This document shows positions 9,285-45,035 of a stretch of 64,000 bases of DNA, piece by piece. Each line of letters begins with the position of its first letter. The first letter of the stretch is position 1. The notes beneath the pieces are model-generated. The model saw nothing but the letters and a program-made list of their open reading frames with translations, was not told where the DNA came from and ran no database searches. Location of the stretch: NCBI GenBank assembly GCA_022793875.1, contig JAAWDR010000002.1:2399-66398 (forward strand). Reading direction: 5' to 3'. The position numbers and the translations under genes are program-made. The stretch comes from Clostridia bacterium (lineage in GTDB: Bacteria; Bacillota; Clostridia; TANB77; CAG-508).

Positions 9285-9402
9285 GGGGATTATATTTGAA
9301 CATTTTGTTCAAATATCCCCATTATCAAATTTAAGATATATCCCAATTTAGACATTTTGTCCAAACAGAACCATCCCAAATGTAGATTCCCTAATGGGAC
9401 AT
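9285..9402 (+). repeat. degenerate REP-like copies (GGGGAT...ATCCCC palindrome 9285-9322 plus a decayed full-length copy 9334-9402)
   Basis: 9334-9402 aligns by eye to the 56-nt consensus (AGATATATCCCAATTTAGACATTTTGTCCAAACAGAA...CCCTAATGGGACAT) with substitutions and an insertion. Confidence 0.6.
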
Positions 9403-10962
9403 TATCGCTACTTTTTTATTTGGCTTTATTTCTAAATTCTTTGGCTTTTGTATTTCTACTTTTTCTTCAAATATATTTTCATCAAATATTTGGACAAAAT
9501 ATTTATCTTTTTCCTTTATTATTTTTATATAAGCATCTTCTAATCTTATTATTCTTACAGTAAATATATTCTTTAGTATTTCATAATTTGTTTCTTTATC
9601 TTTTGAAATTTCCTCTAATACTTTTAGTTCTATAGCCTTATCTATTATAAGTTTACTAATCTCATTTACTCTTTCTTGTAGTACTTCTATATTTTGTATT
9701 CTCTTTTCATAATTATATGGTATTAATAAATAATATCTAAAATCATATATTATCTCTTCTATATCTTGTCTTGTCTCTACTTTATTTATATTTATCTTCA
9801 TTACTTCTAAAAATAACTCTTGAAACTCTATCTTTAATTTTTCTAATTCTTTTTCTTTGTCTTGTATATCAATAATTTTTAAATATTTATATTTTTCTTC
9901 TAATTCATTTTTATATTCTACAAAATTTATTGGATTTAGTATTTTATTTACTTCTTGTAAATTTTTTAAATATTGGTCTTTTTCTTCTTGCATTATTTTA
10001 GATAATACTTTCATACTAAATATTTTTTTATTAAGTGGTAATGTTTCATTTCTTTTTTTGTATTCTTCTTCTAATAATTCTTTATTATTTATAATCGTAT
10101 CTATTTCTTTTATTTTATTTGTTATTTCAATTTTCTCTTTTGTTTTTTCTTCTACAAATTTACTTCTATTTTCTATTTTTTTTAATTGCTTTTCTATATC
10201 TTTCTTTTTAGATGAAAATTCCTCTACTTTTGTAGTTTCAAATTTTAATGTTAATAATATTGAAATTTTTGATATTATATCTAGAATTTTCTCTGCATTT
10301 TCTTTATCATATTTATTCTCCAATTTTTCTTTAAAAACATCAAAATAATCAATTATAAACTCATTATTTTTCATCCATTTATTTAAAAATTTATGTCCTA
10401 TAATTATTCTTAAATTTTGATATATTAAATTATGATCTACACTCTCTATTTCATGAGGTATATTTGTCCATGAATATCCATTAAAATCTCTTAATGGTTC
10501 TACAATATTTATATTATTTCCAACATTTATAAGATTTGATAAAGTTTCATCAATAAAGAAATATTCATCTTTTATAATCTTTTCTTTATTACCTAACTTT
10601 GATATTGCATATAATATTTTTCTTTCTATTGGATATGCTACTATTTCTTTATTTTCTTTATTTATAATATAGCTTTTATTTTGAGGTATTTTGCTATCTT
10701 TTTCATTCATTTTTACTATTTTTATTGATTTACAATCATTTTGTATAATCTCTAAAATATTTGATATATATTCATCTTTATCTTCAATATCTTTTTTTAC
10801 TGTTTCTATATCTTTATATGCTGCTTCTATTTTATATAATATACTTAAGAGTGTACTTTTTACATTTTCATCAAATTGCTTTTGTTCTAATATTTTTTCA
10901 AGTTCATTGTTATAATCTTTTTTTACAATTTTCTCTAAAATATTCTTCTTTTTTTGAATCAT
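9391..10962 (-). CDS. hypothetical Lys/Glu-rich coiled-coil protein (523 aa)
   Basis: Long uninterrupted ORF with no motif I can name. The last codons (..IMSH*) and the stop are supplied by the REP-like copy. Confidence 0.5.
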   Translation of the reverse strand: MIQKKKNILEKIVKKDYNNELEKILEQKQFDENVKSTLLSILYKIEAAYKDIETVKKDIEDKDEYISNILEIIQNDCKSIKIVKMNEKDSKIPQNKSYIINKENKEIVAYPIERKILYAISKLGNKEKIIKDEYFFIDETLSNLINVGNNINIVEPLRDFNGYSWTNIPHEIESVDHNLIYQNLRIIIGHKFLNKWMKNNEFIIDYFDVFKEKLENKYDKENAEKILDIISKISILLTLKFETTKVEEFSSKKKDIEKQLKKIENRSKFVEEKTKEKIEITNKIKEIDTIINNKELLEEEYKKRNETLPLNKKIFSMKVLSKIMQEEKDQYLKNLQEVNKILNPINFVEYKNELEEKYKYLKIIDIQDKEKELEKLKIEFQELFLEVMKININKVETRQDIEEIIYDFRYYLLIPYNYEKRIQNIEVLQERVNEISKLIIDKAIELKVLEEISKDKETNYEILKNIFTVRIIRLEDAYIKIIKEKDKYFVQIFDENIFEEKVEIQKPKNLEIKPNKKVAIMSH

Positions 10963-11038
10963 TGTACACCCTCCTTCTATTAATATAAATTTATTATTGA
11001 TACTTTAAATTTAAACGAATGCTATATGTGGGTATAAA

Positions 11039-13489
11039 TTACTCCTCTACAACCCCTTGTGGCTCTGTTCCCATTTTTAATTCATCAAGTCTCTCTTTAG
11101 TAATTAATACTTCTCTAGGCTTACTTCCTTGATAGCCAGAAATAATTCCTCTTTCTTCCATCTGGTCTATAATTCTACCAGCTCTTGCATATCCTACTTT
11201 AAATCTTCTTTGAATAAATGATGTTGACGCTTGTCCTTGTTCTACAACTGCATCTATTGCATCCATTAAAAATGGGTCTGTTTCATCATCTTCTGCCTGC
11301 TCTTGTACTAATTCTTTTTCAGTCTTATTATTATTTTCTATTGTTTCTAAAATATCCTCACTATAATTCGCTGTTCCATTTTGTTTTACAAAGTCCACTA
11401 TTTTTTCTACTTCATCATCTGATACAAATGCTCCTTGTACTCTTACTGGTTTTGGTGCTCCAGATGGGAAAAATAACATATCTCCTTTTCCTAATAACTT
11501 TTCAGCTCCTACTGAATCTAATATTGTTCTAGAGTCTACTTGTGATGATACTGCAAATGCTATTCTTGATGGTACATTTGCTTTAATCAATCCTGTAATT
11601 ACATCAACTGATGGTCTTTGTGTTGCAATTACTAAATGCATTCCTGCTGCTCTTGCTTTTTGAGCTAATCTACATATTGCTTCTTCTACATCTTTCGCTG
11701 CTACCATCATTAAATCTGCTAACTCATCTACTATTATTACTATTTGTGGTAATTTTCCAATACCATTCTCTTTTTCTATAGCATTATTATATCCTTTTAA
11801 ATCTCTTACACCTTTTCCTGCAAATAAGTTATATCTATTATCCATTTCTTGTACAGCCCATGCTAATGCTCCCGCTGCCTTTTTAGGATCAGTAACTACT
11901 GGTATTAATAAATGTGGTATTCCATTATATACTGATAATTCTACTACTTTTGGGTCTACCATTACCATTTTTACTTCACTTGGCTTACTATTGTATATTA
12001 TACTTGTTATTATTGTGTTTATACATACACTTTTTCCTGAACCTGTTGAACCTGCAATTAAAACATGTGGCATTTTTGCTATATCTGCTAATTGTACATT
12101 TCCTGCAACGTCTTTTCCCAACGCAACTGATAATTTCGATTTATTATTTTGAAATTCTTCACTTTCTAATACTTCTCTTAAGTGTACAGCTTCTTTTTCC
12201 TTATTTGGAACTTCTATTCCCACTGCTTGTTTTCCTGGTATTGGAGCTTCTATTCTTATTGTTTCAGCTGCTAAATTTAAAGCTATATCATCTGCTAAAT
12301 TAGCAATTTTACTTACTCTTACTCCCTCTGCTGGTTTTAATTCATATCTAGTTATTGCTGGACCTACTGATACATTTTCGACTTTTGCTGATACCCCAAA
12401 ACTATATAATGTTTTTTGCAATTTTGTAGCTGTATCTGTTAAAGCCTTTGCTCCTCCTTTTAAGGATTTTTTTTCTCCTTTTCCAAGTAATTCAATAGGA
12501 GGATATTCATAATTTTCGTCTTCAACTACCATTGCATGTTCTAATTGTAATACTTCTTTTGTTTTATCTTCTTTCTTTTCTTCTTCTTGCTTAAATAATG
12601 AATTTTCTTCTTTTTTAAATATATTATTTTCTATAACATCTGGTTGAACAACTTTAGCAGTCTTAGTTTCTTTGGTTAATGGTGTTAAATCATCATTTTT
12701 ATGATCATATTTTTTTCTTCCTTTTGTATCTTCTTCATCTAATATTCTTCCACCAAAATTAATTTTTATTTGTTCACCCAATTTTTCATCAGTTGCTAAA
12801 GCTTGTTGTCTAGCTTCTTCCTTCATTATTTCTCTTTCTATTTTTTCTTTTTTTCTTTTTTCAATAGCTTCTTGTCTAATTTTAAGTTGTTCTTCTTTTA
12901 ATTGTTGTTTTCTTTCATATCTTTCTTCTCTGTTTTCTTCTGTCTTTTCCACAAAATTATTTATTATTTCTGACATATTTATTCCAAATGTAAATACTGC
13001 CAGCATTGCAACAACTCCTATACACAATATTGTAGCTCCTATTTGTCCTAAAAGATTTACAAGTGGTGTAGCAAGTATTGCTCCAAGTGCTCCTCCTCCA
13101 TTTCCTTGTGCTCCAATTAGATATGCATCTTTTACTATTTTAGATATGTCTTTATTTACTATTGATAATTCGCCTTTATTTATTTGATATACGCTTATCA
13201 ATACTGAAATACTTATTAGTAATATTGCATATTGTATCAATTTTGATGTTATATATTTATTATCTGCACATGCAATTTTTATTGCTACTGCAAATATTCC
13301 TATTGGAAGAACATATCTTATTATTCCCATCATTCCTCCAAGTATTTCATTTAATTCTACTCCTATTACTCCTGATTTTCCATATATTAATACTGCTAAT
13401 AATATACTTAATACTATTAGTCCTACTACTGTTAAATCTATTTTTGATGCTCCTTTTTTTGTTGTTTTTCTTTTTTTTCTTTTTGCCAT
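11039..13489 (-). CDS. ftsK: DNA translocase FtsK/SpoIIIE
   Basis: N-terminal TM helices, Walker A GSTGSGKS, DELADLM, C-terminal gamma winged helix (ASTSFIQRRFKVGYARAGRIIDQME). Start moved to ATG 13489 (MAKRKKRK), which has a GGAGGA RBS. Confidence 0.93.
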   Translation of the reverse strand: MAKRKKRKTTKKGASKIDLTVVGLIVLSILLAVLIYGKSGVIGVELNEILGGMMGIIRYVLPIGIFAVAIKIACADNKYITSKLIQYAILLISISVLISVYQINKGELSIVNKDISKIVKDAYLIGAQGNGGGALGAILATPLVNLLGQIGATILCIGVVAMLAVFTFGINMSEIINNFVEKTEENREERYERKQQLKEEQLKIRQEAIEKRKKEKIEREIMKEEARQQALATDEKLGEQIKINFGGRILDEEDTKGRKKYDHKNDDLTPLTKETKTAKVVQPDVIENNIFKKEENSLFKQEEEKKEDKTKEVLQLEHAMVVEDENYEYPPIELLGKGEKKSLKGGAKALTDTATKLQKTLYSFGVSAKVENVSVGPAITRYELKPAEGVRVSKIANLADDIALNLAAETIRIEAPIPGKQAVGIEVPNKEKEAVHLREVLESEEFQNNKSKLSVALGKDVAGNVQLADIAKMPHVLIAGSTGSGKSVCINTIITSIIYNSKPSEVKMVMVDPKVVELSVYNGIPHLLIPVVTDPKKAAGALAWAVQEMDNRYNLFAGKGVRDLKGYNNAIEKENGIGKLPQIVIIVDELADLMMVAAKDVEEAICRLAQKARAAGMHLVIATQRPSVDVITGLIKANVPSRIAFAVSSQVDSRTILDSVGAEKLLGKGDMLFFPSGAPKPVRVQGAFVSDDEVEKIVDFVKQNGTANYSEDILETIENNNKTEKELVQEQAEDDETDPFLMDAIDAVVEQGQASTSFIQRRFKVGYARAGRIIDQMEERGIISGYQGSKPREVLITKERLDELKMGTEPQGVVEE

Positions 13490-13534
13490 TTTTTCCTCCA
13501 TTTCTGTCCATGTCTAAAAGGGACGTTTCTGTTT

Positions 13535-13646
13535 TAAGATATCCGTAACTCACTTCGCTTGAACGGCTAATTTTTTTCAATGATTACAAAATTTATTTCA
13601 TAAATTTTGTATAAGATATCCGTAACTCGCTTCGCTCGAACGGCTA
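13535..13646. repeat. two direct 35-nt GC-box repeats (TAAGATATCCGTAACTCRCTTCGCTYGAACGGCTA) spaced 77 bp
   Basis: 13535-13569 and 13612-13646 differ at 2-3 positions. An AT hairpin (TACAAAATTTAT..ATAAATTTTGTA) lies between them. Located in the ftsK 5' leader. Confidence 0.8.
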
Positions 13647-13697
13647 TCTTAAAAGGAGAGAACAGACCGTTCTCCGTTTCCCTCCTTATTTTTATTC

Positions 13698-14201
13698 TTA
13701 TTTTAATTCTCTTCTACTATTTTGAACTGTTTTTATTGTGTCTTCTACTGACATTTCCATTAAGTTTAATGCTTCTCCAATATTTTTTTCTAGATTTTCT
13801 AATGTTTTTGTTAATACTTCTTCTGTATGAGATAATAAACCATCTGCATATTCTTTTGTTCCATTTGAAATTTCTCTAGATCTTTCATTTGCAGATTCAA
13901 TAATTTCTTTTTTCTGTTCATATGCTTTTCTAGTTATTTCATGTTCATCTATCATTGAAATTATTCTATTTTCAGCTTCCTTTACAATTCCATCAGCTTC
14001 TTTTTGTGCTTCTACAATTATACGTTGTCTCTCCTCTTTTACCCATTTAGCTTGTTTCAATTCATCTGGTAATTTTAGTCTAATTTCCTTTATTAAATCT
14101 AGCATTTCATCTTTATCTATTATTCCTTTTGCTGAGAATGGTAAATTTCTACTTCTTTCTATTAAATCTTCTAAAGATTCTAGTAGCTCAAATATCTCCA
14201 T
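13698..14201 (-). CDS. conserved coiled-coil protein (ATP synthase b/E-like repeats), function unknown
   Basis: 167 aa, charged helical sequence (..QRIIVEAQKEADGIVKEAENRI..). Lies between rsmD and ftsK. Confidence 0.4.
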   Translation of the reverse strand: MEIFELLESLEDLIERSRNLPFSAKGIIDKDEMLDLIKEIRLKLPDELKQAKWVKEERQRIIVEAQKEADGIVKEAENRIISMIDEHEITRKAYEQKKEIIESANERSREISNGTKEYADGLLSHTEEVLTKTLENLEKNIGEALNLMEMSVEDTIKTVQNSRRELK

Positions 14202-14220
14202 GGCTTACCCCTTTCTAATT

Positions 14221-14784
14221 TTAAGCATTTTTGTTCTGATATCTTAAAAATATCAATATTGCTCTTCCATACTTTCTTTTATCTATTATTTCTACGTTTA
14301 ATTGTTCTAATTGTTTTAATACTTTTTGCTCATCATCTGTTTCTATAATTATTTTAGTATTTTCATGAATTATATTTTTTTGTATAATCATTTTTATTGA
14401 TTTTATTACAAAATCCGAATCATAAGGTGGATCTATGTATATAATGTCTAATTTATCTTGTATTTTCGTTTTTAATAATTGTTCATAATCTACATTATAT
14501 AGTTCTACTCTTTCTTTCAAATGTGTTTTTTCAATATTTTTGTTTATTATCCTTATTGCCTCTTTTGATTTATCACACAAAATTACTTTTTTAGCTCCTC
14601 TACTTGCTGCCTCTAGTCCTATCGCTCCACTTCCTGAAAATAAGTCCAAAAATATTGCGTTAGCTATTTCATCTTGTATTATATTGAACAATGATTCTTT
14701 TACTCTATCTAATGTTGGTCTTGTTGCTTGTCCTTCTAAAGTATATAGATTCGTTCCTCTTGCTGTTCCACTTATTATTCTCAT
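14221..14784 (-). CDS. rsmD: 16S rRNA (guanine966-N2)-methyltransferase
   Basis: MRIISGTARG..PTLDRVKESLFNII, SAM motif LDLFSGSGAIGLEA, DPPY motif. Confidence 0.9.
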   Translation of the reverse strand: MRIISGTARGTNLYTLEGQATRPTLDRVKESLFNIIQDEIANAIFLDLFSGSGAIGLEAASRGAKKVILCDKSKEAIRIINKNIEKTHLKERVELYNVDYEQLLKTKIQDKLDIIYIDPPYDSDFVIKSIKMIIQKNIIHENTKIIIETDDEQKVLKQLEQLNVEIIDKRKYGRAILIFLRYQNKNA

Positions 14785-14987
14785 TTTGATTTTACTCCTA
14801 TGATACTATTTTATTCTTTTTTTGCTTAAAGTCAATAATATTAACAAAATTGTAATATACATTTAATAGTTCTGTAATATTGTTCCTAAATTGTAATATT
14901 TTTCTTTTATATTTTACATTTTATTGTTTATTATTTGTATAAGTATAATAAAATTAAAAAGAACTACCATATTTCAGGTAGTTTTCT

Positions 14988-15449
14988 TTAGTATAATTTA
15001 TCTTCTTTATTTATATCTTTTAATAACTCTAATTGAGAAATCAATAAAGATTCCATTTTTGCTTTATATATATCAAATTGTTTTTTTATATCATCTAATT
15101 CTTTTTGTTTCATAAGTATTTCATTATTTAATTCATCAACTCTTTGTTGTGCAATTGATTTTGCATCATTTACTATTTGGTCTGCTTTTTGTTTTGCTAC
15201 ATTTTTTACTTCTTCTGCTGTTGTTTGTGCCATTATTAGTGTATTTTGTAATGTTGACTCAATTGTTCTATACTGAACTAAACTATTGTTTAATTCTTCA
15301 ACCTTAGCTCTTAATTCATTAATTTCTTTATAATTTTTAGTATAATCAGCTGTTACTTCATCTAGAAATTCATCAACTTCTTCAACACTATATCCATTCA
15401 TCATTTGTTTTGCAAATCTTTTATTTTCTATATCTAATGGTGTTATCAT
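14988..15449 (-). CDS. divIVA: DivIVA domain cell-division protein
   Basis: MITPLDIENKRFAKQMMNGYSVEEVDEFLDEV is a typical DivIVA N-terminus, followed by a coiled coil. Confidence 0.9.
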   Translation of the reverse strand: MITPLDIENKRFAKQMMNGYSVEEVDEFLDEVTADYTKNYKEINELRAKVEELNNSLVQYRTIESTLQNTLIMAQTTAEEVKNVAKQKADQIVNDAKSIAQQRVDELNNEILMKQKELDDIKKQFDIYKAKMESLLISQLELLKDINKEDKLY

Positions 15450-15502
15450 ATATTCCTCCTAATTTGTAGCGAGCCATACACTTAATAAGTTATTGGCAAA
15501 TA

Positions 15503-15988
15503 CTAATTACTTACATTATTATTTCTTAGCCATGAAACTGATAATTTACTTTTCATTTCTTCTCTAGCCATATCATTTGTTATTTCATAATTTGATGGTG
15601 CTACTAAAAATATTGAATTTGATACTTTTTGAATATATCCATCTAATGCATATACTCCACCGCTAATAAAGTCTACTATTCTTCTAGCAACATCTTTATT
15701 TACATATTCTAAGTTTACTATTACTGATTTTTTCTCTTTTAAAAAGCTACAAATCTCATCTGATTGTTCAAATGTTGTAGGTTGTGAAATAACCATTTTT
15801 ATTGCTTGTCCTTGTGCTTGTGGCATATTTACTACTTTATTATTATTTTTTCTTCCAAATAATTTTCTGTTTTCTTCTTCTATATCTTCGTCTTCATAAT
15901 CATATATGTTTTCTTCTTCATATTCTTCTGGTTCTGCTGAATCCATTCCAAATAAATCCCATACTTTATTCATTAATGCTCCTGACAT
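15503..15988 (-). CDS. sepF: cell division protein SepF
   Basis: Acidic linker then the SepF core (IKMVISQPTTFEQSDEICSFLKEKKSVIVNLEYV..RRIVDFISGGVYALDG..IFLVAP). Confidence 0.9.
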   Translation of the reverse strand: MSGALMNKVWDLFGMDSAEPEEYEEENIYDYEDEDIEEENRKLFGRKNNNKVVNMPQAQGQAIKMVISQPTTFEQSDEICSFLKEKKSVIVNLEYVNKDVARRIVDFISGGVYALDGYIQKVSNSIFLVAPSNYEITNDMAREEMKSKLSVSWLRNNNVSN

Positions 15989-16152
15989 AAAAAAACCTCC
16001 TAAAAACTCTTTTCCATATTATTGTATTTAGTATCTACTTTTTTTGAAATATTGTCAATACTTTTTGCAAATGTAATATATTTTTAATATTTTTGTAATA
16101 TTTTTGTAATATTATATTATTTCAACTCAATTTCTTCATCATTCAAAGAAAG

Positions 16153-16181
16153 CCTACACTCATTTTTAATCTGAGTGTAGG
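16153..16181 (-). terminator. stem-loop downstream of the 16213 ORF (CCTACACTCA / TGAGTGTAGG)
   Basis: 10-bp perfect stem with an 8-9-nt loop. T-rich flank on both strands, so it may act in both directions. Confidence 0.55.
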
Positions 16182-16212
16182 TTTTCTTAAAATACATATT
16201 AATCTGTATTTC

Positions 16213-16551
16213 TCAACTACTTATTTTTTCATTTTGTGATTCTTTTATAAGTGCTTCATTTTCCAAAGTTAGATTTATAATCTCTACAGCTTTACTTATT
16301 ATACTTACACCAAATCCTTCAGATTTATGATGCGTTTCTGCCGCTTCATTTATTAAAAAGTTTATAAATATTTCAGCCTCTTCTCGACTTGTTAAACATA
16401 TATAACGAGCTAGACCTTCTCCTAATCCAGATTCCCATCCTTTAAAATAATTGTTTTCATATATTTTAGCTATCTCTCTTATTCTAGTAAAGGATTTTCC
16501 TCTAAGGCTAGGTCCATATTCCTCATCAAATATTGGAAATATAATAACCAT
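16213..16551 (-). CDS. hypothetical protein (112 aa)
   Basis: ORF overlapping the 3' 73 nt of ORF 16479..16829 in another frame. It may be the distal half of one frameshifted ~205-aa gene. Confidence 0.4.
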   Translation of the reverse strand: MVIIFPIFDEEYGPSLRGKSFTRIREIAKIYENNYFKGWESGLGEGLARYICLTSREEAEIFINFLINEAAETHHKSEGFGVSIISKAVEIINLTLENEALIKESQNEKISS

Positions 16552-16829
16552 TTTCTTTGTTGTGCAGATACTTTTATAAATTGACTATCAATCTTAGTTT
16601 TAGGTATCAGTTGTTTAAATCTAAAATTCGTTTCATATAATCTGTCAAGTTTTTTATCTAAGAACTCATTATATTCTCTTCTTGCATTTAATTCTCCATC
16701 TTCAAGTTTTTTTTCTAATTTTTTCTTATCTTCCTCACACTCTTTCCGCATTTTAATACATTCTTCTTTAAATCCTTTTCGGTTTTCAAATTCTCCACAA
16801 TCTGTCAATCTCATTTCAATAAAAATCAT
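16479..16829 (-). CDS. hypothetical charged protein (116 aa)
   Basis: The start ATG overlaps the HlyD-like stop (ATGA), suggesting translational coupling. Contains an in-frame CGG (ATG CGG AAA, about 16746-16748). Confidence 0.4.
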   Translation of the reverse strand: MIFIEMRLTDCGEFENRKGFKEECIKMRKECEEDKKKLEKKLEDGELNARREYNEFLDKKLDRLYETNFRFKQLIPKTKIDSQFIKVSAQQRKWLLYFQYLMRNMDLALEENPLLE

Positions 16830-18056
16830 TCTACTTTACTCAAATCAGGATTTAATATCAACTCATCATATATTGATATTCTTCTAGAGTAATTCTTAAA
16901 TCCTAACTCATTCAATTCCTCAGTATTATAATTAGAAACAATAGAATATTTTTCATTTTCCTTATTTACTTTAACTAATATTTTGCTTAAATATCCTGCT
17001 CTACTTCTAACTACATATTTCAATCCATTTTCCTCAACAATAGCCTGATTTGGAACTTTTAATCCTGTACTAGTCCACCAAATTAAATCAAATGAAATTT
17101 TTCTATAATTTGTAAGTTCATTTATTTCTCTATCTATTTCTAAAACTATCATTGTCTCTTCTTCATTTTCTTGCGATATATAAGCAACTTTAGCATCAAT
17201 CATTTTATTATTTGATAATCTTATTTTTACTTTATCATCTAACTTTGCACTTTTAGATTTTTCTGAACTACTAATTGTTACAATATAGCAACTAGAACTA
17301 TCTATTATTTTTCCACACTCTTCATTTGTAGCTATTAATTGTCCTGTTTTTAATTTTAAACTTTCTAAAAATTCTTTACTCAATGAAGAAAAATTATTTG
17401 GTGTTAATACTTCTTCTAACCCATCAACTTTATAAGAAACTATTCCACTATTAGGCGCTGTTATATATTCTGCCCCAGAATTAAGTTGTTCCTCATATGT
17501 AGTTCTCTTATTATATAGTTCTTTTAAATGTGTTCCAGCAGCACTTGATTCTCCAGATATCTTTGCTTTTTTTGTAATAATATCACTTATTTGTTTATTA
17601 TATTCTATCATTTTTGATATATCTGTTGTTTTACTTAATAATTCTATTTTTTCATCCAATTGTTTTTCCAATGTTGGTGAAAATATATCTTTTTGTCCTT
17701 TTAATGCTTCTTGTATCTCTCCATCTAATTTAGATATTTCTTTTTTTAATTGTTCCTCATTTTGGCTATAATATCTATATATAGAATCTCCTTTTGATGT
17801 TTTTTCACCTTCATTTTTAATCTGTTCCATTCCATTTTTATAATTATTTCCTTTTACAACTTGTTCATTTCGTATAATATATCCAATATTTGTTTCTTCC
17901 AAATATAGAGTTCCGCTGTTCAACTATAACTTTATTAGTTGGTTCTTTTATAAGTAAATATACTGCATATATTAAATATATTAACACCAATACAAATGTG
18001 ACATATACAATTATTTTCTGCCCATTACTTTTTTTCTCACTTTTTTCTTTTTTCAA
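16826..18056 (-). pseudogene. HlyD-family membrane-fusion/adaptor-like protein, interrupted by a +1 frameshift
   Basis: ORF 17865..18056 (TM anchor ..KEPTNKVIVEQ) continues in ORF 16826..17923 (GTLYLEETNIGYIIRNEQVV.., ITAPNSGIVSYKVDG, FDLIWW..GLKVPNQAI). The frames join at CAG-CGG-AAC (CGG = 17915-17913). Confidence 0.7.
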
Positions 18057-18110
18057 CTTATGTTTCTCCTTTTTACATAATTCAAAATAGTATCTACATT
18101 AATTTGCACA

Positions 18111-18992
18111 TCATTTTCTCCGTTCTAACCAAATTGTCTGCTTATTCTTTCTAAACCATGTTAATTGTCTTTTTGCATATCTTCTTGTTTCCATTTTTAT
18201 TTTTTCTATCATTTCATCTTTTGTACAGTTTCCTTCAATATATTGAACAACTTTTTTATATCCTAACCCTTGCATTGCAGTAGGAAATTTATTGTATTTT
18301 TTCACAATATTTTCAACTTCTTTAATTAATCCTTGTTCAACCATTATATCAACTCTTTTATTTATTCTTTGATATAACTTTTCTCTATCCCAATTAATTG
18401 CAAACACCTTATAATCATATTCTACTGGATTTTTTCTTGATTCTATTTCTTGTTCAGTTTTTGTTTTCCCTGTTGCTTTATATATTTCTAAAATCCTCAT
18501 AATTCTTTTCTTATCATTTTGACTTATTTTTTCCATTGCAACTGGGTCAATTTCTACTGCTTTTTTATATAATTCTTCTAATCCTTTTATATCTATCAAA
18601 TATTCTAGTTCTTTTCTATAATTTTCATCTAATTCTATATCATTATATTCTATTTCATATATTAAACTATCTACATATAAACCCGTTCCACCAACTATTA
18701 TTGGAGTTTTTCCTTTTGTAATTATTTCTTTTATTGCATTTTTTGCATCTTTTTTGTATTGTGCAACACTATATCTTTCATCTGGAGATACAAAATCTAA
18801 TAAATAATGTTTTATGTATTGCATTTCTTCTATAGATGGCTTTGCAGTTCCTATATCCATGTCTTTATATATTTGCATTGAATCTGCTGATACTATTTCT
18901 CCATTTATTTTTTTTGCAAGTTCTATTGAAAGAGCTGTTTTTCCAGATGCAGTTGGTCCACATATTACTATAACTTTAGGTTTTTCGTTCAT
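18111..18992 (-). CDS. miaA: tRNA dimethylallyltransferase
   Basis: P-loop CGPTASGKT, SADSMQIYKDMDIGTAKP, RQLTWFRK. The annotated C-terminus is short and ends 2 codons after an in-frame CGG (see findings). Confidence 0.93.
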   Translation of the reverse strand: MNEKPKVIVICGPTASGKTALSIELAKKINGEIVSADSMQIYKDMDIGTAKPSIEEMQYIKHYLLDFVSPDERYSVAQYKKDAKNAIKEIITKGKTPIIVGGTGLYVDSLIYEIEYNDIELDENYRKELEYLIDIKGLEELYKKAVEIDPVAMEKISQNDKKRIMRILEIYKATGKTKTEQEIESRKNPVEYDYKVFAINWDREKLYQRINKRVDIMVEQGLIKEVENIVKKYNKFPTAMQGLGYKKVVQYIEGNCTKDEMIEKIKMETRRYAKRQLTWFRKNKQTIWLERRK

Positions 18993-19055
18993 TTTGTTTT
19001 CTTTTCACTCCTTTATTGTTATCCTAAAACTCTTGATATTTCGCTTCTATTCATA

Positions 19056-19535
19056 TTAGAGATGTGTCCCCAATGGGACATTTTGTCCCAAACAGAAACG
19101 TCCCCAATGGGACATTTTTAAAATCGCCACTTGTCTACTTCCTAAATAAATGCTCTCAAATATAAACAATATTACAATCATAATTAACAATATGATAATA
19201 CTTTTTATTAATTTGTCCTTTGATAAATTATCATTATTTATTTGTTCTAATTTTCTAAATACATATGGCAATAATACATATCCATTTACTATTGTAAATA
19301 ATAGTACAAAAATGTTACGTATTTGATGCATTACTTCTTTACTTTCATATTCAATTCCAATTTTTGAAATATTATATATTATAAATGTCAATACATATGT
19401 AACTACTAATCCTATAATTATACAAATAATTTTTGTTTTCTTTTCTATACTTCCTAAACTAGTCCACATCCATCCTAGTAAAACTAAAAACATTACTAAC
19501 ATTATTGTTAAAATTACTGCCATATTTATTTTCAT
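19056..19535 (-). CDS. small polytopic membrane protein (159 aa) with REP-encoded C-terminal tail
   Basis: Four hydrophobic helices. The last 19 aa (MSHWGRFCLGQNVPLGTHL) are translated from the REP copy 19059-19115. Confidence 0.55.
   Translation of the reverse strand: MKINMAVILTIMLVMFLVLLGWMWTSLGSIEKKTKIICIIIGLVVTYVLTFIIYNISKIGIEYESKEVMHQIRNIFVLLFTIVNGYVLLPYVFRKLEQINNDNLSKDKLIKSIIILLIMIVILFIFESIYLGSRQVAILKMSHWGRFCLGQNVPLGTHL
19059..19115 (+). repeat. REP-like element, full-length copy
   Basis: GAGATGTGTCCCCAATGGGACATTTTGTCCCAAACAGAAACGTCCCCAATGGGACAT, with five GTCCC/GGGAC half-sites. Confidence 0.9.
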
Positions 19536-19557
19536 CCTTTCCTAAATAATTCCAATT

Positions 19558-21882: not shown

Positions 21883-21983
21883 TTTTTTACCTTCTCTCAT
21901 TCATTGTCTTCCAAAAATTTCTTTGATGCTATTATATCATTACTTTTTTTATTTTGTATAGTAATTTTTGAAAATTTTTTACT

Positions 21984-22014
21984 AAAAAAACTCCTTTAAA
22001 ATTTAAAGAAGTTT
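21984..22014 (-). terminator. rho-independent terminator after the secF-like gene
   Basis: On the minus strand: AAACTTCTTTAAA-TT-TTAAAGGAGTTT followed by TTTTTT. Confidence 0.6.
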
Positions 22015-22022
22015 TTCATTTA

Positions 22023-22673
22023 CTATTTATTTTCCTTTACCATATTTTTCTTTATATCTTGTTCAAATTTGCTAGTAGCAACATAAACTGACAATACATA
22101 AACAATCAAAACTGAAGGTATTGTAAATCTACCAACTGGCATTCTAGTAAAAGCCATTATACATAATAGAACTATTTGAGCAAGAGCTATAATTGCAAAT
22201 GATTGACCTAACACTTTAAAGCAATTTAATTTGTTATATCTTATCATGAAATATGCAATTATAATTATAGCACTGATTATAAAAGGAACTATATATGGTC
22301 TTATTATATCTCTTCCTCTTGTATTTGAAACAGTTTCAATCTCTACACTTTCTATTTTTATTTCAGTTTCATATTTTTCACTTAGCTTTGCAACTAACTC
22401 TTGTCTTTGCTCTTCTGTAATTTCTGTTGTTGTTATACTTAATGCATCTTTGTAGACTTCAATTTCTTGAATTCTTACTGGTTGCTCTCCAAATACTTCA
22501 TTTGTTATTTGTTTTATATCTGTTCTATCAAATTCTTTACCCAAATTTATTTCTACTTTTTTCAAATTTGAATATTTTAGTTCAAAAGCTAGTCCTTTTG
22601 CAAATATTACAATAATTCCTACTACTAATATTATAGCAATCATAGCTACTAAAATTTTCGTTTCTTTTTTCAT
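22023..22673 (-). CDS. SecF-like protein-export membrane protein (short, divergent)
   Basis: N-terminal TM, ~100-aa periplasmic-type loop, then a cluster of TM helices. Only 216 aa, where I would expect about 290 for canonical SecF. Adjacent to the SecD-like gene. Confidence 0.5.
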   Translation of the reverse strand: MKKETKILVAMIAIILVVGIIVIFAKGLAFELKYSNLKKVEINLGKEFDRTDIKQITNEVFGEQPVRIQEIEVYKDALSITTTEITEEQRQELVAKLSEKYETEIKIESVEIETVSNTRGRDIIRPYIVPFIISAIIIIAYFMIRYNKLNCFKVLGQSFAIIALAQIVLLCIMAFTRMPVGRFTIPSVLIVYVLSVYVATSKFEQDIKKNMVKENK

Positions 22674-22726
22674 TTTTTCTTCCTCTCTCTCCGCTTCATT
22701 TTGTCTCTTTAATATACTTTATGAAA

Positions 22727-24214: not shown

Positions 24215-24228
24215 TTTTTTCCTCCATA

Positions 24229-24888: not shown

Positions 24889-25061
24889 TTGCTTCCTCCT
24901 TTTGTCTTTTTTGATTTTATATTAATTTTTAAAAAATATCAACTGTTTTTTTGATTTTTATTATTATATTAATAACTTTTACTTATTATTCAAACATTTA
25001 TCAAATAAAGTATTTATTTTTCTTTAATTTTATGTTAATATTATATCTAGGAGGAAAAATT

Positions 25062-28928: not shown

Positions 28929-28938
28929 CTAAAAGTTT

Positions 28939-28965: not shown

Positions 28966-28968
28966 TAA

Positions 28969-29200: not shown

Positions 29201-29230
29201 TTGACAATTTTACATAATGCATGATATACT
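29201..29230 (+). promoter_or_regulatory. strong sigmaA-type promoter of the plus-strand cassette
   Basis: TTGACA (29201-29206), 18-nt spacer ending in TGA (extended -10), TATACT (29225-29230). Confidence 0.6.
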
Positions 29231-29352
29231 AGTATAGTAAAAAATTAGTACATTGGCAATAAAATAAGGAGGGACAATATGTTTAAAGACACTTAAATCT
29301 AATGCTATTAGTAACTTGTCAACCACGCCACCACTACTTTAGGAGGTAAACT

Positions 29353-29730: not shown

Positions 29731-29731
29731 T

Positions 29732-30268: not shown

Positions 30269-30306
30269 AATCAAAATTTGATTTTTTAGTCACATTGCGC
30301 ACATAG

Positions 30307-30336
30307 AACTCCCCTAGTCTAACTAAGGGAGTTTTT
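30307..30336 (+). terminator. rho-independent terminator of the cassette
   Basis: AACTCCC-loop-GGGAGTT followed by TTTT. Confidence 0.75.
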
Positions 30337-30346
30337 GTTATATATT

Positions 30347-31034
30347 TTAATTTTTACATACATCAACAAAATATCTAAAAATATTATTCATTCTCTCATC
30401 TTTTAAATATAAACTTTCTGGATGAAATCTAACACCAATATAAAACTTTTTATCTTTGCTTTCTACCACATCTGGATAACCATCTTCACAAAAAGCTACT
30501 TTATCAAGCATTGGACAATTCTTTATTGTTCTTTTATGTCTAGAATTTACATCCATTTCTTCTGTTTTTACTATATCATAAAATTTTGAATTCTTTTGTA
30601 TTTTTATACTATGTACATATTCATCAAATGATTTATCATGTTTTTCAGGATTTGAAATTTTATAAGTATCTCCTCCGAAGGGCTCTAACTATACAATTCT
30701 GCCCTGCACATATTCCTAATATTGGTATATCTTTTTCATAGCAATATTTTGCAACAATCACTTCATAATTATCTGTTTCAACTCCACCCTGTAATACAAT
30801 TCCATCACATAATTCTATCTGTGATATTAAATTTTCTTTTTCTTCTACTGATAAATTTTCTTTCCAATTGTCTCCACTATAATTTATTTTTGCTTCAGTT
30901 GGCAATATTCCAATCGCAATTCCGCCATTACTAAATACTGCTTGCTTAACCTCATCTCTTATAAAAATATCAACTTTATTTGATTTATATTCTGCATAAT
31001 GCTTTGAAACTATTCCTATAATTGGCTTCTTCAT
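30347..31034 (-). pseudogene. class I glutamine amidotransferase / peptidase C26 (PuuD-like gamma-glutamyl hydrolase), +1 frameshifted
   Basis: N part MKKPIIGIV...DIPILGICAGQN (nucleophile Cys). C part ..GVRFHPE.. (His/Glu). Deleting the C of CTT-CGG-AGG (CGG = 30677-30675) gives a continuous ..VRALGGDTYKISNPEKH.. Confidence 0.8.
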
Positions 31035-31059
31035 ATTAAATTCTCCTAACATTTTATTA

Positions 31060-40556: not shown

Positions 40557-41024
40557 ATGTATATGAAAAATTTTATTTTTAAATCATATTCTGAAAATGA
40601 TACTAAGCAATTTGCAAAAAGCTTTGCTTCTAAATTAAATAATGGAGATATCATAGTTCTTTCTGGTGATTTAGGTTCTGGTAAAACTAAATTCACAGAA
40701 GGTTTTTTGTCTTACTTTGATTTAGAAGACGAAATTTCAAGTCCTACATTTACAATTGTTAATGAATATAAAAAAAATGATACAAATATTTATCATTTTG
40801 ATGTATATAGATTAGAAGATTCATCAGAATTCTATGCAATCGGTGGTGAAGAGTATTTTGAAAATGGAATTTGTATTATTGAATGGGGCGAATTAATTGA
40901 AGATGCTCTACCCAAAAATTATATAAAAATTAGTTTCTCTAGAAACTATGAGAATGAAAATTCTAGAATTTTAGATATTCAATCTATTGGAAATAAATAT
41001 GATGAATTAGTTGATTCATTATAA
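40557..41024 (+). CDS. tsaE: tRNA t6A37 biosynthesis ATPase TsaE
   Basis: LSGDLGSGKTKFTEG P-loop, SPTFTIVNEY, HFDVYRL. The true start may be ATG 40563, 6 nt after AGGTGA. Confidence 0.88.
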   Translation: MYMKNFIFKSYSENDTKQFAKSFASKLNNGDIIVLSGDLGSGKTKFTEGFLSYFDLEDEISSPTFTIVNEYKKNDTNIYHFDVYRLEDSSEFYAIGGEEYFENGICIIEWGELIEDALPKNYIKISFSRNYENENSRILDIQSIGNKYDELVDSL

Positions 41025-41050
41025 ATTTTAATGAAAGAAGGAAAATTATT

Positions 41051-41710
41051 TTGAAAATTTTATGTATTGATACTTCAAGCAATTTATGTAGTGTAGCAAT
41101 TTTAGAAGACACTACTTTAATAAAAAAATTAGAATTAAATAATGGTCTAACACATTCTGAAACTTTAATGCCATTAATAAAACAATTATTAGAGGAAAGC
41201 AATTTAACACTAAAAGATATTGATTTACTTGTTTCTGATATAGGTCCTGGTTCTTTTACTGGAATTCGTATTGGAGTTTCAACTTGTAAAGCTTTTTCTG
41301 ATAGTTTAAATATACCTTGTATTGGAATTAGTAGTTTAGATGTTTTAGCTTATAATATAAAAAATGATGGAATTATTTGCAGTACAATTGATTGCAAAAA
41401 TGCTAATTGTTACTTTGCATTATATGAATGTAAAAATGGAGCTTATTTTACTTTAGAAGAACCTTGTGCAAAAACTGTTCAAGAAGTTTCTGATTTATTA
41501 AATTCTAAGTACTCAAATGAACAAATTGAATTTGTTGGAAATAGCATTACTTCTAATTCCACAGATTATTACTTAAATGTTGAAAATTTAGGTATTGCAG
41601 GACTTAGAAAATTCACTTCTAATAATAATGTTGGTGAAGAAATTTTACCTTTGTATTTGAAAAAGCCTCAGGCCCAAAGACAATTAGAAGAAAAAGAGCT
41701 TTTAAAATAA
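41051..41710 (+). CDS. tsaB: tRNA t6A37 biosynthesis protein TsaB
   Basis: TTG start. MKILCIDTSSNLCSVAILED.., GPGSFTGIRIGVST. Confidence 0.88.
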   Translation: MKILCIDTSSNLCSVAILEDTTLIKKLELNNGLTHSETLMPLIKQLLEESNLTLKDIDLLVSDIGPGSFTGIRIGVSTCKAFSDSLNIPCIGISSLDVLAYNIKNDGIICSTIDCKNANCYFALYECKNGAYFTLEEPCAKTVQEVSDLLNSKYSNEQIEFVGNSITSNSTDYYLNVENLGIAGLRKFTSNNNVGEEILPLYLKKPQAQRQLEEKELLK

Positions 41711-41732
41711 TTTTATTGATTGGAGATTTGTT

Positions 41733-42177
41733 ATGGATTTAAAAATTGCCACAATGACTTTAACTGATTTAAATGAAATTAGTGATATTTTAATTTCTGA
41801 TTTTGATGATTTTTGGACTTTTAATACTTTAGAGGAAGAATTGAATTGTGATAATTCTTTCTTTTTAGTTGCTAAAAATCATTATGATGAAATTGTTGGT
41901 TTTGCTGGTTTTAAATCAATTTTTGATGAAGCTGATATTATGAATATTGTTGTTAAAAAAAGTTATAGAAATAATGGTATTCGGTTCCTTTCTATTAGAA
42001 AATTTGATTTCATTTGCAAAAAAACTTAATATAAAAGTCATTACTTTAGAGGTTAATGAATGTAATCTATCTGCTATTAAACTTTATAATAAATTTAATT
42101 TTAATAAAGTTGGTGTTAGAAAAAAATATTATGATGGCAAAAATGATGCTATTATAATGACTTGTAATGTTATATAA
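41733..42177 (+). pseudogene. rimI: ribosomal-protein-alanine N-acetyltransferase RimI, +1 frameshifted
   Basis: ORFs 41733..42029 and 41947..42177 join as ..IVVKKSYRNNGI|GSFLLENLISFAKKLN.. (GNAT R-x-x-G-x-G motif) if the C of ATT-CGG-TTC (CGG 41982-41984) is skipped. Confidence 0.82.
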
Positions 42178-42248
42178 AATATTTGTAAAGAAAACGAATA
42201 AAATGTCAAAGAAAGAAGCATCTGAATTTCAGGTGCTTCTCTTTAGCA

Positions 42249-43052
42249 TTACACATATTTCTCAACTTTAACAACAGTTCTTCCACTTCTGGTAGTTCCA
42301 GAAAACTCCTTCACAACAAATCTCCCCTTACCTCTAATTGTAATAACATCATTCAATTTAATTTGTTTAGAAGCTTTAGTTTCACTTTGACCATTAATAA
42401 AAACTCTTTCACTGTCAATTATTTGGACAGCTTTACTCCTAGAAGTCTTAGCTAAATCTGAAACAAAATTATCAAGCCTCATAGAAGGAACTATTATACT
42501 CACCTCTTCTACTTTTATCTCTTGCTCTCTTAAATTTTCTAATTCTACTAAGTCAATTTTTGAATTCTCAAATCTTGTAAGAGTGCCTAATTCCTGCTTT
42601 AGAGTTTCTGCTGTTTCTTCTTTTACTAAAATATCAGCTCCATCATCTGAAACTAAAATATCTCCAACCTTTTCCCTTCTCATTCCAAGTTTAACTATTC
42701 CACCCAAATAATTTCTATGAGCATAATTCCCTTTTTCTTCATCATTTAGAGTAATCCTAATAACCTTAATAATTTTAGAAAAATTTTTCTCTACCATATT
42801 CATATTGTATTTATGAGGATATATTATAAGTACTTTTCTTTCAGCATTTTCAAATCCTCCATATAATACACAATTTTCAAATTCTATCTTTTTCAGAAAA
42901 GTTTTAACCAATGCAACTTGATACATATCTAAAAAATCTGTATATTCTAATTTTTCTCTTTGCTTAGAAAATTCTATTTTATCTAAAATTTGTGCTAATA
43001 AAATTTTGTCCTCTTGTTTTTTGTAATCACTTAAAATTTTCTGTTTATCCAT
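42249..43052 (-). CDS. YlmH-like S4-domain RNA-binding protein
   Basis: 267 aa. C-terminal S4 motif (MRLDNFVSDLAKTSRSKAVQIIDSERVFINGQ). Confidence 0.7.
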   Translation of the reverse strand: MDKQKILSDYKKQEDKILLAQILDKIEFSKQREKLEYTDFLDMYQVALVKTFLKKIEFENCVLYGGFENAERKVLIIYPHKYNMNMVEKNFSKIIKVIRITLNDEEKGNYAHRNYLGGIVKLGMRREKVGDILVSDDGADILVKEETAETLKQELGTLTRFENSKIDLVELENLREQEIKVEEVSIIVPSMRLDNFVSDLAKTSRSKAVQIIDSERVFINGQSETKASKQIKLNDVITIRGKGRFVVKEFSGTTRSGRTVVKVEKYV

Positions 43053-43157
43053 CTCTATTTCCTTTCACTTCTTTCGACCATTTTATCTTGAAGCTATTCT
43101 AAATTTTTAAGTTTGCAATTACCATGCTATATTTCTAACTTAATTTCTTGTTATTTA

Positions 43158-45035
43158 TTATTTAGATTTGCAAGATGTGTCCCCGATGGGACAAAATGTC
43201 CCAGAAAGAAACGTCCCCAATGGGACATAAATCCCCTCAAGTTCTTCTACTGTCCCATGTCTAATGAATTCATCTGGCAATGACAATTCTTGAATTTCAA
43301 CATCCTTCAAATTTTCATCTATTATCAACTCTTTTATAGCAGTTCCTAACCCATTTATTTTTGTTCCATCCTCTATTGTAATAACTTTTTTTGTCTTTTC
43401 AATTGATTTTTTTATTGTCTCAACATCTAATGGCTTTAAAAATCTTGCGTTAATAACTTCCGCATCTAATCCTTCTATTTCATAATGCTTTGCCATTTTC
43501 ATTGCCTTTGCAACTTTATTTCCAATTGCTATTATACTTACATCTTTTCCTTCTTTTAAAATCTGTGCCTTTCCTAATTCTATTTTTTCTTGATTTTCAA
43601 ATTTTATACTAGTATCTTCTCCACCTCTTGGATATCTAATAACTACTGGCCTTTTTAAGGTTATAGCAAATTCCATCATTTCTTCAAGTTCTTTAAAATC
43701 TTTTGGTGCCATTATTGTTAAATTTGGAACTAATCTAAAAAATGCCATATCTAATAATCCTTGATGAGTTTCACCATCCTGTCCTACTAATCCTGCTCTA
43801 TCTATACACATTATTACTGGTAAATTCTGAATTGCTACATCATGTATCACTTGATCATATGCTCTCTGATAAAATGATGAATATATTGGCACAAATGGTA
43901 TCATTCCCTCTTTTGCCATTCCTGCAGCCATTGTTACTGCATGTTGCTCTGCTATTCCAATATCAAAAAATCTTTCTGGAAATTCTTTTGCAAATTTTGT
44001 AAGTCCTGTTCCATCTTTCATTGAGGCTGTTATAGCAACTATTTTTTCATTATTCTTTGCCAAGTTTACTAGTTTCTCTCCAAATACTTTTGAATAATCA
44101 CTCTTTTTTTCTTTTTTAGTCTTTCCTGTTTCAATATCAAATGGTGATGTTGCATGAAATCTATCAGGATTTTCTTCTGCTATTTTATATCCTTTTCCTT
44201 TTTTAGTTAGTACATGTATCAAAACTGGTCTTTCAACTTGTTTACTTAATTTCAATATATTTTCTAATTGTTCAATATTATGACCATCTACTGGTCCAAG
44301 ATATGTAAAACCTATATCTTCAAAAAACATTTTTGGTATTACTAATTGTTTTATACTTCTCTTTATTCTTTGAACAACTTTAACTATTGGCTTTCCTATA
44401 GCAGGTACATTATTTAAAACTTTTTTAGCTGATATATTAGATTTTTTATATAATTTTTTAGTTCTCAATTTGCTTAAAAATAAATTTAATCCACCTACAT
44501 TTTTTGATATACTCATTTCATTGTCATTCAATATAACCATCATTTTAGTTTGACTATATCCTGCATCATTTAAAGCTTCTAATGCCATTCCTCCTGTCAA
44601 TGCTCCATCTCCTATTATAGCAATTACTTGATTATTATCACCTTTTAAATCTCTTGCTCTTGCCATTCCTAATGCTGCTGATATTGATGTGCTACTATGT
44701 CCTGTGTCAAAATCGTCATATTCTGATTCATTTATTTTTGGAAATCCTGATAATCCATCTAATTTTCTTATTGTTTTAAATTCTTCTCTTCTTCCTGTAA
44801 TTATTTTATGTACATATGATTGATGTCCTACATCCCATATTATTTTATCTTTTGGCATGTTAAATACACTATGTAGTGCAAGTGTAAGTTCTACTACTCC
44901 TAAATTTGATGCTAAATGTCCACCATTTTCTGATACTACTTGTAATACATATTCTCTTATCTCTTGTGCTAGTTTATTTTTTTCTTCTATATTTAATTTT
45001 TTTAAATCTTCTGGTGAATTGATTTTTTCTAACAC
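43158..45035 (-). CDS. dxs: 1-deoxy-D-xylulose-5-phosphate synthase, 3' end replaced by REP-derived codons
   Basis: Start set at GTG 45035 (GGAGGA RBS; VLEKINSPEDLKKL). GHLASNLGVVELT, GDGALTGGMALEALN, PRGG. The last ~23 codons (VPLGTFLSGTFCPIGDTSCKSK) are read through REP 43173-43228. Confidence 0.9.
   Translation of the reverse strand: MLEKINSPEDLKKLNIEEKNKLAQEIREYVLQVVSENGGHLASNLGVVELTLALHSVFNMPKDKIIWDVGHQSYVHKIITGRREEFKTIRKLDGLSGFPKINESEYDDFDTGHSSTSISAALGMARARDLKGDNNQVIAIIGDGALTGGMALEALNDAGYSQTKMMVILNDNEMSISKNVGGLNLFLSKLRTKKLYKKSNISAKKVLNNVPAIGKPIVKVVQRIKRSIKQLVIPKMFFEDIGFTYLGPVDGHNIEQLENILKLSKQVERPVLIHVLTKKGKGYKIAEENPDRFHATSPFDIETGKTKKEKKSDYSKVFGEKLVNLAKNNEKIVAITASMKDGTGLTKFAKEFPERFFDIGIAEQHAVTMAAGMAKEGMIPFVPIYSSFYQRAYDQVIHDVAIQNLPVIMCIDRAGLVGQDGETHQGLLDMAFFRLVPNLTIMAPKDFKELEEMMEFAITLKRPVVIRYPRGGEDTSIKFENQEKIELGKAQILKEGKDVSIIAIGNKVAKAMKMAKHYEIEGLDAEVINARFLKPLDVETIKKSIEKTKKVITIEDGTKINGLGTAIKELIIDENLKDVEIQELSLPDEFIRHGTVEELEGIYVPLGTFLSGTFCPIGDTSCKSK
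43173..43228 (+). repeat. REP-like element, full-length copy (inside the dxs 3' end)
   Basis: AGATGTGTCCCCGATGGGACAAAATGTCCCAGAAAGAAACGTCCCCAATGGGACAT. Confidence 0.9.

Follow-up and report, generated by a model that had tools for sequence, protein, structure and literature searches.

The window analysed here, a 64,000-nt stretch of contig JAAWDR010000002.1 from an uncultured Clostridia bacterium (assembly GCA_022793875.1), carries dispersed 56-nt palindromic repeats, two of which bracket a gene for a Y1/HUH tyrosine transposase. We consider it highly probable that these repeats are a non-autonomous palindromic family of the repetitive extragenic palindrome (REP) type and that they belong to this single-copy transposase, itself a RAYT-type (REP-associated tyrosine transposase) protein of the group known as TIRYT or TnpA-Y1 subclass 2.1. 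Direct observations carry this reading, namely the identity of the protein, the arrangement of repeats around its gene, the dispersal and turnover of the repeats, the absence of a target-site duplication and the covariation of the repeat stems. The repeats, the transposase and one neighbouring hairpin lie in the window as follows.

9334-9402, plus strand: decayed composite of 69 nt, with an internal insertion of ~13 nt and several substitutions.
19060-19115, plus strand: full composite (the 19059 copy), antisense to the flanking genes and forming the last 19 codons of open reading frame (ORF) 19056-19535 (minus strand).
31060-31115, plus strand: full composite, its outer base overlapped by the TGA stop of a DUF1846 gene (31115-32578, minus strand).
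36417-36472, minus strand: full composite in inverted orientation, the downstream terminal repeat of the transposase unit.
36480-37259, minus strand: Y1/HUH tyrosine transposase of RAYT/TIRYT type, 259 aa (Pfam Y1_Tnp, E = 1.5e-17).
37330-37364, minus strand: hairpin resembling an ordinary terminator and belonging to the upstream gene; it separates the upstream repeat from the start of the transposase gene.
37402-37457, plus strand: full composite, the upstream terminal repeat of the transposase unit, its outer base overlapped by the TAA of ORF 37457-37759 (minus strand).
43173-43228, plus strand: full composite inside the 3' end of dxs (43158-45083, minus strand).

The transposase, whose reading frame is open from a GTG at 37268, scores 69.4 bits on the NCBIfam model REP_Tyr_transpos as against 20.3 bits for IS200. 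It carries the motifs YCLMDNHVH (HUH), GHLFQNRF, CRYIHQNP (with the catalytic tyrosine) and YKWSSY, of which HVH, RYIHQNP, GHLFQNRF and WSS are invariant in 14 homologues (alignment A2). Its C-terminal helix-turn-helix (HTH)-like tail is also conserved, as Q(L/I)(S/A)R..GI.RK.IER; Pfam HTH matches of this tail are weak (HTH_26, E = 0.02; HTH_23, E = 0.044), and an AlphaFold2 model (pLDDT 71.5) has confident helices at residues 200-259 with no reported fold match there. As a whole, the model matches the TnpA folds of ISDra2, IS608 and IS200 in Foldseek as well as 4er8, a REP-associated transposase (TnpA-REP) that gives the longest structural alignment. A sequence search of the PDB with the same protein returned no meaningful match; its kinship to solved Y1 transposases showed up by fold alone.

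The gene stands between the copies at 36417-36472(-) and 37402-37457(+), which are inverted with their outer ends facing outward, and this is the defining REPtron/TIRtron arrangement. Inverted bracketing recurs in L006, L036, L141-L148 and most of 84 homologous loci. In several DNA sequencing runs the 994-nt contig carrying the transposase is covered as deeply as its single-copy neighbours, and across 1.09 Mb of repeat-bearing loci from ~25 species homologues occur solely at the radA site, the gene lying upstream of radA even where protein identity has fallen to 43% (L141-L148). Single-copy depth and radA synteny together match what has been described for domesticated RAYTs passed on vertically (PMC5581495). 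One relative, L017, has neither the transposase nor the two flanking repeats at its radA site and keeps the equivalent of the hairpin at 37330-37364.

The initial annotation of this DNA had described a dispersed, REP-like composite forming GC-rich islands on gene boundaries of AT-rich DNA, and its copies are borne out. The 15-mer GTCCCCAATGGGACA, with up to two mismatches, has 11 matches in the window where 0.01 would be expected by chance (0 of 100 shuffled windows reached 11), and these resolve into five full 56-nt copies and one decayed 69-nt copy. A profile hidden Markov model built from 140 units found no additional repeat copy in the window, and Rfam at gathering scores found nothing at the copies and one tRNA elsewhere in the window. 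The element is about 50% GC by inspection as against 22-30% for the window, nearly all of whose genes lie on the minus strand. Similarity among copies is cut off sharply at AGAT...GGGACAT and the flanks are unrelated throughout (alignments A1, family D1), and the copies are therefore not parts of a larger duplicated segment, a possibility that the annotation had itself raised. Its reading of a dispersed REP-like element is supported both by the Y1 transposase that the repeats flank and by the wider census that it had called for, in which flanks are again always unrelated.

More specifically, an exact 31-mer core was found in 37 stretches and a looser core pattern in at least 112, from ~25 uncultured gut Clostridia/Bacillota species known as metagenome-assembled genomes (MAGs); among the matches listed, all but one of the looser-core stretches come from gut MAG species of chicken, goat, mouse and human, and the window's organism itself was detected in mouse-gut metagenomes. 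The fetched loci hold 237 units. The conserved unit in most species is only the 3' 35 nt, AAAATGTCCCAAACAGAAACGTCCCCAAWWGGACA, followed by AAA, TTT or TTA, and the 56-nt composite amounts to ~1.6 tandem periods of 34 nt. Among the loci fetched, the composite is found only in the window, in CAOKJC and in a few other MAG loci, together 25 full composites. Conservation of the unit is at the nucleotide level, third codon positions being conserved too. A genome scan with ATGGGACAWWWTGTCCCA proved too permissive, as this is a generic palindrome whose matches were mostly in unrelated genomes, and a scan of viral contigs gave three chance matches and no full unit.

Across the lineage the unit takes the form of single copies, of inverted doublets resembling REPINs or miniature inverted-repeat transposable elements (MITEs), and of 34-nt tandem periods. 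Pairs of units less than 700 nt apart are '-+' in 46 cases, with the GGACA ends outward, tandem in 15 and '+-' in none. A 300-bp doublet including its spacer occurs twice within L094 and also in other loci, and several doublet spacer families recur at different loci; this recurrence of doublets together with their spacers at different sites is REPIN- or MITE-like behaviour. Sequencing depth over the repeats is ~75-320x single-copy depth in several DNA runs, which suggests ~100 copies per genome, a figure that co-resident relatives may inflate.

Further repeats of other kinds lie in the window. A 51-nt palindrome, TGCAAAGTATTTATATTATAGGAAGTTCGCAGAACTTTCCTATAATATAAA, is present in two 98% identical copies 48 kb apart (4319-4369 and 52714-52764) and may be a second small repeat family, and an 88-nt intergenic repeat occurs in two 75% identical copies 2.2 kb apart (3300-3387 and 5465-5552). 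A tandem array at 33575-33816, intergenic between ORFs 32785-33603 and 33843-34889, holds 3.1 repeats of a 77-nt unit, 94-97% identical, with a period that is not a multiple of three.

The link between transposase and repeat extends well beyond the window. A protein-alignment scan turned up 80 loci with homologues 32-55% identical, spread across Clostridia, Bacilli and Negativicutes, and most of these transposase genes have inverted repeats sharing GGGGACG[GT]TTC on either side. The shared motif lies in the loop of a hairpin that has a different stem from one genome to the next, the 70 hairpins with a stem of 6 bp or more representing 64 different stems. The mean best stem is 5.9, as against 4.0 when arms are combined across loci, and this is the unselected test. 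In alignment A3, made up of 40 hairpins selected because they possess a stem, pairing at the six outer positions reaches 87.5%, compared with 47.6% after shuffling (0 of 500) and 33-49% when the register is slid, with 99 double changes versus 28.

In the window, covariation supports the outer hairpin, ATGTCCCA-TTGGGGACGTTTCTGTT-TGGGACAT, with GGGGACGTTTC as its loop. The 56-nt composite has several competing alternative hairpins, and folds better than shuffled sequence (z -2.9 to -5.5 as DNA, -2.5 to -4.4 as RNA); the alternative folds proposed in the initial annotation are upheld to that extent, but the short GTCCC-CAAT-GGGAC hairpin is not the one that covariation supports. The full terminal repeat follows a three-arm plan, L-loop-R-TTTT-L'-GGGGACACATCT, in four lineages (the window, L143, L144 and L146), and as the arms differ between these lineages the alternative pairings are conserved too.

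Other palindromes were seen at comparable sites. The doublet of L134 (~5850-5970) combines the stem AGTTGCCA with the loop AAGGGGACGGGTTAAAA, and L011 (~4440-4500), L081 and L044 have palindromes of the form TAGGGACGTGTC...CTGTCCCTA at the same kind of site; such different palindromic repeats in other species suggest lineage-specific repeat types. A palindrome in the window, GGGGATTATATTTGAACATTTTGTTCAAATATCCCC at 9281-9325, adjoins the decayed copy and resembles the GGGAC...GTCCC palindromes at the equivalent L011, L081 and L044 sites. Tandem arrays of a 21-nt sequence, GGGGACGGTTCTTTTTTGAAA, flank a transposase homologue on both sides in L150 (2669-2815; Clostridiales UBA3678), and a GGGAC[GA][GT] core occurs in 14-21 copies within 6.7 kb in L207 (Halobacillus locisalis), where the hairpins are of GGGGACGGTTCT type, and in L164 (Rossellomorea aquimaris). 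The repeats of L150, L207 and L164 indicate that related repeat families may be common in Bacilli too.

Turnover was followed by comparing occupancy at orthologous sites with 85-95% identical flanks, a comparison of intergenic regions that had been proposed with the initial annotation, and sites indeed differ in occupancy between relatives. L041 has a doublet at a site that in L078 is occupied by a plain terminator, and L007, L011 and L020 share a doublet at a site where L104 has a terminator. L005, L006 and L036 have a unit that is missing at the orthologous site of L017, L022 has a composite between genes that in L079 overlap (TAATG), and the four units of L085 correspond in L134 to a doublet whose loop is identical but whose stem is of another type. 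Orthologous copies are 100% identical while the neighbouring spacer diverges. In run X13 a full-depth DNA contig joins 37413 to 37448, and the repeat upstream of the transposase thus has one 34-nt period fewer in that strain. No target-site duplication was evident: 9 of 43 doublets are flanked by direct repeats of 2 nt or more, compared with 8.2 in shuffled controls.

The copies sit on gene ends with unusual precision, and the earlier claim that they mark gene boundaries holds for those of the window. ORF 9391-10962(-) ends three codons within the decayed copy, at a TAG derived from TGG, while ORF 19056-19535(-) reads through the whole element for 19 codons, as MSHWGRFCLGQNVPLGTHL. The element at 43173 is likewise read through by dxs, with a 22-residue tail replacing the native C-terminus; the element is also in frame in dxs of the sister MAG L111, the junction reading ...EL(E)(G/E)IY-VPLGTFL(S/F)GTFCPIGDTSCK... 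in both, whereas dxs of the element-free relative L123 continues ...ELEKIYGLDKDTIVEDI.... The inverted 36417 copy lies 7 nt past the stop codon of the transposase. Between its GGGACAT end and the radA start are 11 nt, with a GGAGG ribosome-binding site (RBS) directly after that end. A stop-free frame through the element had also been noted previously; its openness is confirmed, but it is not one frame, all three being open on the gene-sense strand. On that strand the first codon of the unit is ATG, which in many cases forms TAATG together with the stop upstream.

Position was analysed for 140 non-orthologous units. The GGACA end faces the stop of a convergent ORF in 70 of them, 41 of these within 3 nt of the stop and 22 at a distance of exactly 0, while the AAAAT end typically lies 80-320 nt from the next gene. 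Where the GGACA end faces a start codon instead, the distance is 10-160 nt and an RBS follows directly after the unit. Among the full composites, 18 of 25 have their GGACA end on a gene boundary or no more than 14 nt off, and six of the 25 are read as ORF tails. One practical consequence is that the repeats create spurious ORF extensions; another is that short-read assemblies of these genomes break at every repeat copy.

Two of the neighbouring genes call for separate comment. ORF 30660-31118(-), which follows the 31060 copy, matches glutamine-amidotransferase / peptidase C26 in part only. The GTG listed as its start falls within the element; translation probably begins instead at an ATG that lies ~25 nt further downstream than the element, and a truncated gene is possible. 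Immediately downstream of the transposase unit, radA (35039-36405, minus strand) is broken into two ORFs by single-base insertions at ~35993 and ~35852, as judged relative to L017, L141 and L006. An Illumina metatranscriptome contig from another sample matches exactly across both insertion positions, and in run X19 a minority contig is without the extra base at 35852.

One alternative proposal is that the copies are conserved intrinsic terminators or mRNA-stabilising hairpins kept by selection, with no DNA mobility and only a coincidental proximity to the transposase. The gene-sense unit does read as a hairpin followed by GUUUCUGUUU, on the gene-sense strand the copies at 31116, 37458 and 43228 are called as terminators in a scan, doublets occupy sites where relatives have plain terminators (L041 versus L078, L007 versus L104), and orthologous copies are identical beside diverging spacer. 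However, about 40% of units are oppositely oriented, directly upstream of an RBS and with no following U-tract, and the single unit folds weakly in most species. Selection on RNA would also leave unexplained why homologous Y1 genes across Bacillota have their own forms of the hairpin on both sides, why whole 300-bp doublets recur at different sites and why insertions occur within dxs, and we judge this proposal improbable. A promoter reading of the TTTACATA extension and the unit was set aside, as inspection revealed no acceptable -10 at the right spacing.

The doublets could alternatively be ordinary MITEs descended from an insertion sequence of DDE type whose terminal inverted repeats measure 35 nt, the solo units being decayed halves. 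Outward-ended inverted doublets make up 46 of 61 close pairs and several spacer families recur in a MITE-like manner, yet target-site duplication is not above chance, and the sole gene bounded by repeats is the Y1 transposase, no DDE transposase being so bounded in the window or in the 1.09 Mb of repeat-bearing loci. The 34-nt tandem periods and the abundant sharp-ended solo units also fit REPs and bacterial interspersed mosaic elements better, leaving a DDE origin very unlikely. We attach a similarly low probability to the units being binding sites of a regulator or nucleoid protein, that is, operators or chromosome-organising sites made of GTCCC/GGGAC half-sites. These half-sites are repeated at fixed spacing, sequence conservation across species is extreme and the associated protein has an HTH-like tail, but the neighbours are functionally unrelated (a miaA-type IPP transferase, DUF1846, dxs, radA and a YlmH-like protein), most copies follow stops or lie within gene ends rather than in promoter regions, and close relatives gain and lose copies. 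It seems extremely unlikely that the open frame codes for a functional mini-protein, or for a C-terminal peptide module under selection: the ATG start, the three open frames, the six composites that form ORF tails and the conservation of the dxs tail in two species would fit, whereas the copies are found in either orientation and, with respect to the upstream gene, in any of the three frames, a junction stop separates most of them from the ORF, and conservation is nucleotide-level, third positions included. CRISPR-like and attC-like readings were rejected given the lack of regular spacing and of cassette variability and the presence of a cognate Y1 transposase.

We therefore favour a REP-type family belonging to the Y1 transposase. 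By homology to IS608, ISDra2 and E. coli TnpA-REP, the enzyme would bind the hairpin on single-stranded DNA, probably via the constant loop; its catalytic tyrosine and HUH-bound metal would cut and rejoin the DNA, and the transposase would thereby spread or maintain the repeats while itself now being a vertically inherited host gene beside radA. Since GGACA ends lie on stops and the gene-sense hairpin is followed by a U-rich tract, the copies are probably modules of the transcript 3' end or terminators, a role suggested by their sequence and also by the terminators they appear to have replaced at some sites. Copies landing within a gene end would be translated as short C-terminal tails, as proposed for dxs.

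Several points weigh against this reading. The score of 69.4 bits is below the REP_Tyr_transpos cut-off of 80, which makes the transposase a divergent relative rather than an equivalog, and the repeats, judged by the unit consensus, are without the GTAG tag of classical REPs and have a CGTC that overlaps the stem. A host terminator stands between one flanking repeat and the transposase gene in L036 and L006, and this interposed terminator, together with the L017 site that is without gene and repeats, means that the flanking repeats may be separate insertions and not two ends of a single unit. The L017 genome keeps perfect units even though the transposase is missing from its radA site, the single 36-nt unit is weakly folded in most species (z -0.5 to -0.95), RNA-seq contigs holding the region break at every repeat, and four DNA runs searched at each of the sites 19059, 36417, 37402 and 43173 revealed no empty allele. 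We infer transposition, binding and cleavage by the enzyme from its better-known homologues. Lastly, exact placement on stop codons is unexplained by the known behaviour of Y1 enzymes.

Candidate causes of this placement are a short T-W-W/TAA target, replacement of terminator hairpins, and selection for a hairpin at the stop. Work by Liang, Rudd and Deutscher in 2015 reportedly found that E. coli REPs within ~15 nt of a stop affect translation. A more far-reaching version of the favoured reading, which we advance tentatively and regard as rather unlikely, is that an ancient domesticated transposase-hairpin pair of Bacillota has made the hairpin the standard gene-end module in this lineage, with insertion actively targeted just past the stop (for instance through the single-stranded DNA of terminator hairpins or a T-W-W/TAA target), replacing terminators and at times rewriting the C-termini of essential proteins such as DXS. 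If true, Y1 transposases would have a way of targeting that has not been described for them, and a mobile repeat would have assumed the punctuation of transcripts across the genome.

Compared with known systems, the family works like the REP-RAYT pairs of E. coli and Pseudomonas (Nunvar 2010; Bertels and Rainey 2011, PMC3116915; Ton-Hoang 2012; 4ER8; PMC5581495), and by membership its closest relatives are TIRtrons/TIRYTs and TnpA-Y1 subclass 2.1. With REP-RAYT systems, whose RAYTs are single-copy and vertically inherited (Bertels 2017, PMC5581495), it shares a single-copy vertical Y1/HUH gene with inverted palindromic flanks and ~100 extragenic repeats arranged as inverted doublets and clusters, mostly downstream of genes and with no target-site duplication. 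It differs in that its constant part is the hairpin loop GGGGACG[GT]TTC and not the stem foot, in its longer protein (259 aa) with an HTH-like C-terminal tail, in its host, a 26% GC uncultured Clostridia lineage, and in copies that lie exactly on stop codons and in some cases inside gene ends.

TIRtrons/TIRYTs and their GGGGWSAS motif were described by Di Nocera et al. 2013 (PMC3733652), and the equivalent TnpA-Y1 subclass 2.1, with its C-terminal HTH, by Quentin et al. 2018 (PMC6006769), who found no REP-like sequences near subclass 2.1 genes. In common with these, the window has a long RAYT-like protein with a C-terminal HTH (HTH-like here), and long terminal inverted repeats (TIRs; 56 nt here), not classical REPs, that bracket the gene; in some species TIRs also form moderately abundant dispersed families of dimers or clusters, as in the window's lineage. 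The GGGGWSAS motif is matched by GGGGACAC at the inner end of the composite in copies 19059 and 43173 and in L146, whereas the two gene-flanking copies of the window instead carry GGGACACA and GGGACAGA, and the commonest core of the family, GGGGACGT/GGGGACGG, departs from the motif at position 7. The window's family also differs in its abundance, its spread over ~25 species and a stem that covaries across Bacillota around a constant loop. The word Firmicutes is absent from the main texts of PMC3733652 and PMC6006769 and Clostridia go unmentioned in PMC3733652; in the searchable literature we found no account of this repeat, of its loop motif (unrelated primer sequences only) or of an abundant subclass 2.1-linked family in Bacillota.

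Resemblance to IS200/IS605 elements (IS608, ISDra2 and their hairpin-ended miniature derivatives) lies in the Y1/HUH fold, to which the best Foldseek matches belong, in end hairpins and in the lack of a target-site duplication. Those elements are multi-copy, carry their transposase along, have both end hairpins on the same strand and often encode TnpB, whereas the gene of the window is single-copy and syntenic, its ends are inverted and the short repeats alone have multiplied. The single-copy depth and the inverted ends do not fit an autonomous IS200/IS605 element. In-frame palindromic insertions read as peptide, as in dxs and ORF 19056-19535, recall Rickettsia palindromic elements (RPEs) and the intragenic REPs of Di Nocera et al. 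RPEs differ in that the insertions of the window occur only at extreme 3' ends, where they replace the native C-terminus. We know of no dedicated transposase for RPEs.

Knowledge of REP-RAYT systems comes almost entirely from Proteobacteria. The present finding adds a clean and dense REP-RAYT-like system from uncultured low-GC gut Clostridia, and links the poorly understood long TIRYT / subclass 2.1 Y1 proteins to a real dispersed repeat family. Its constant loop with covarying stems is a directly testable candidate for the recognition element, and the placement on stop codons together with the read-through tails offers a way into the question of how the sites of such repeats are chosen and whether the repeats act as signals at gene ends.

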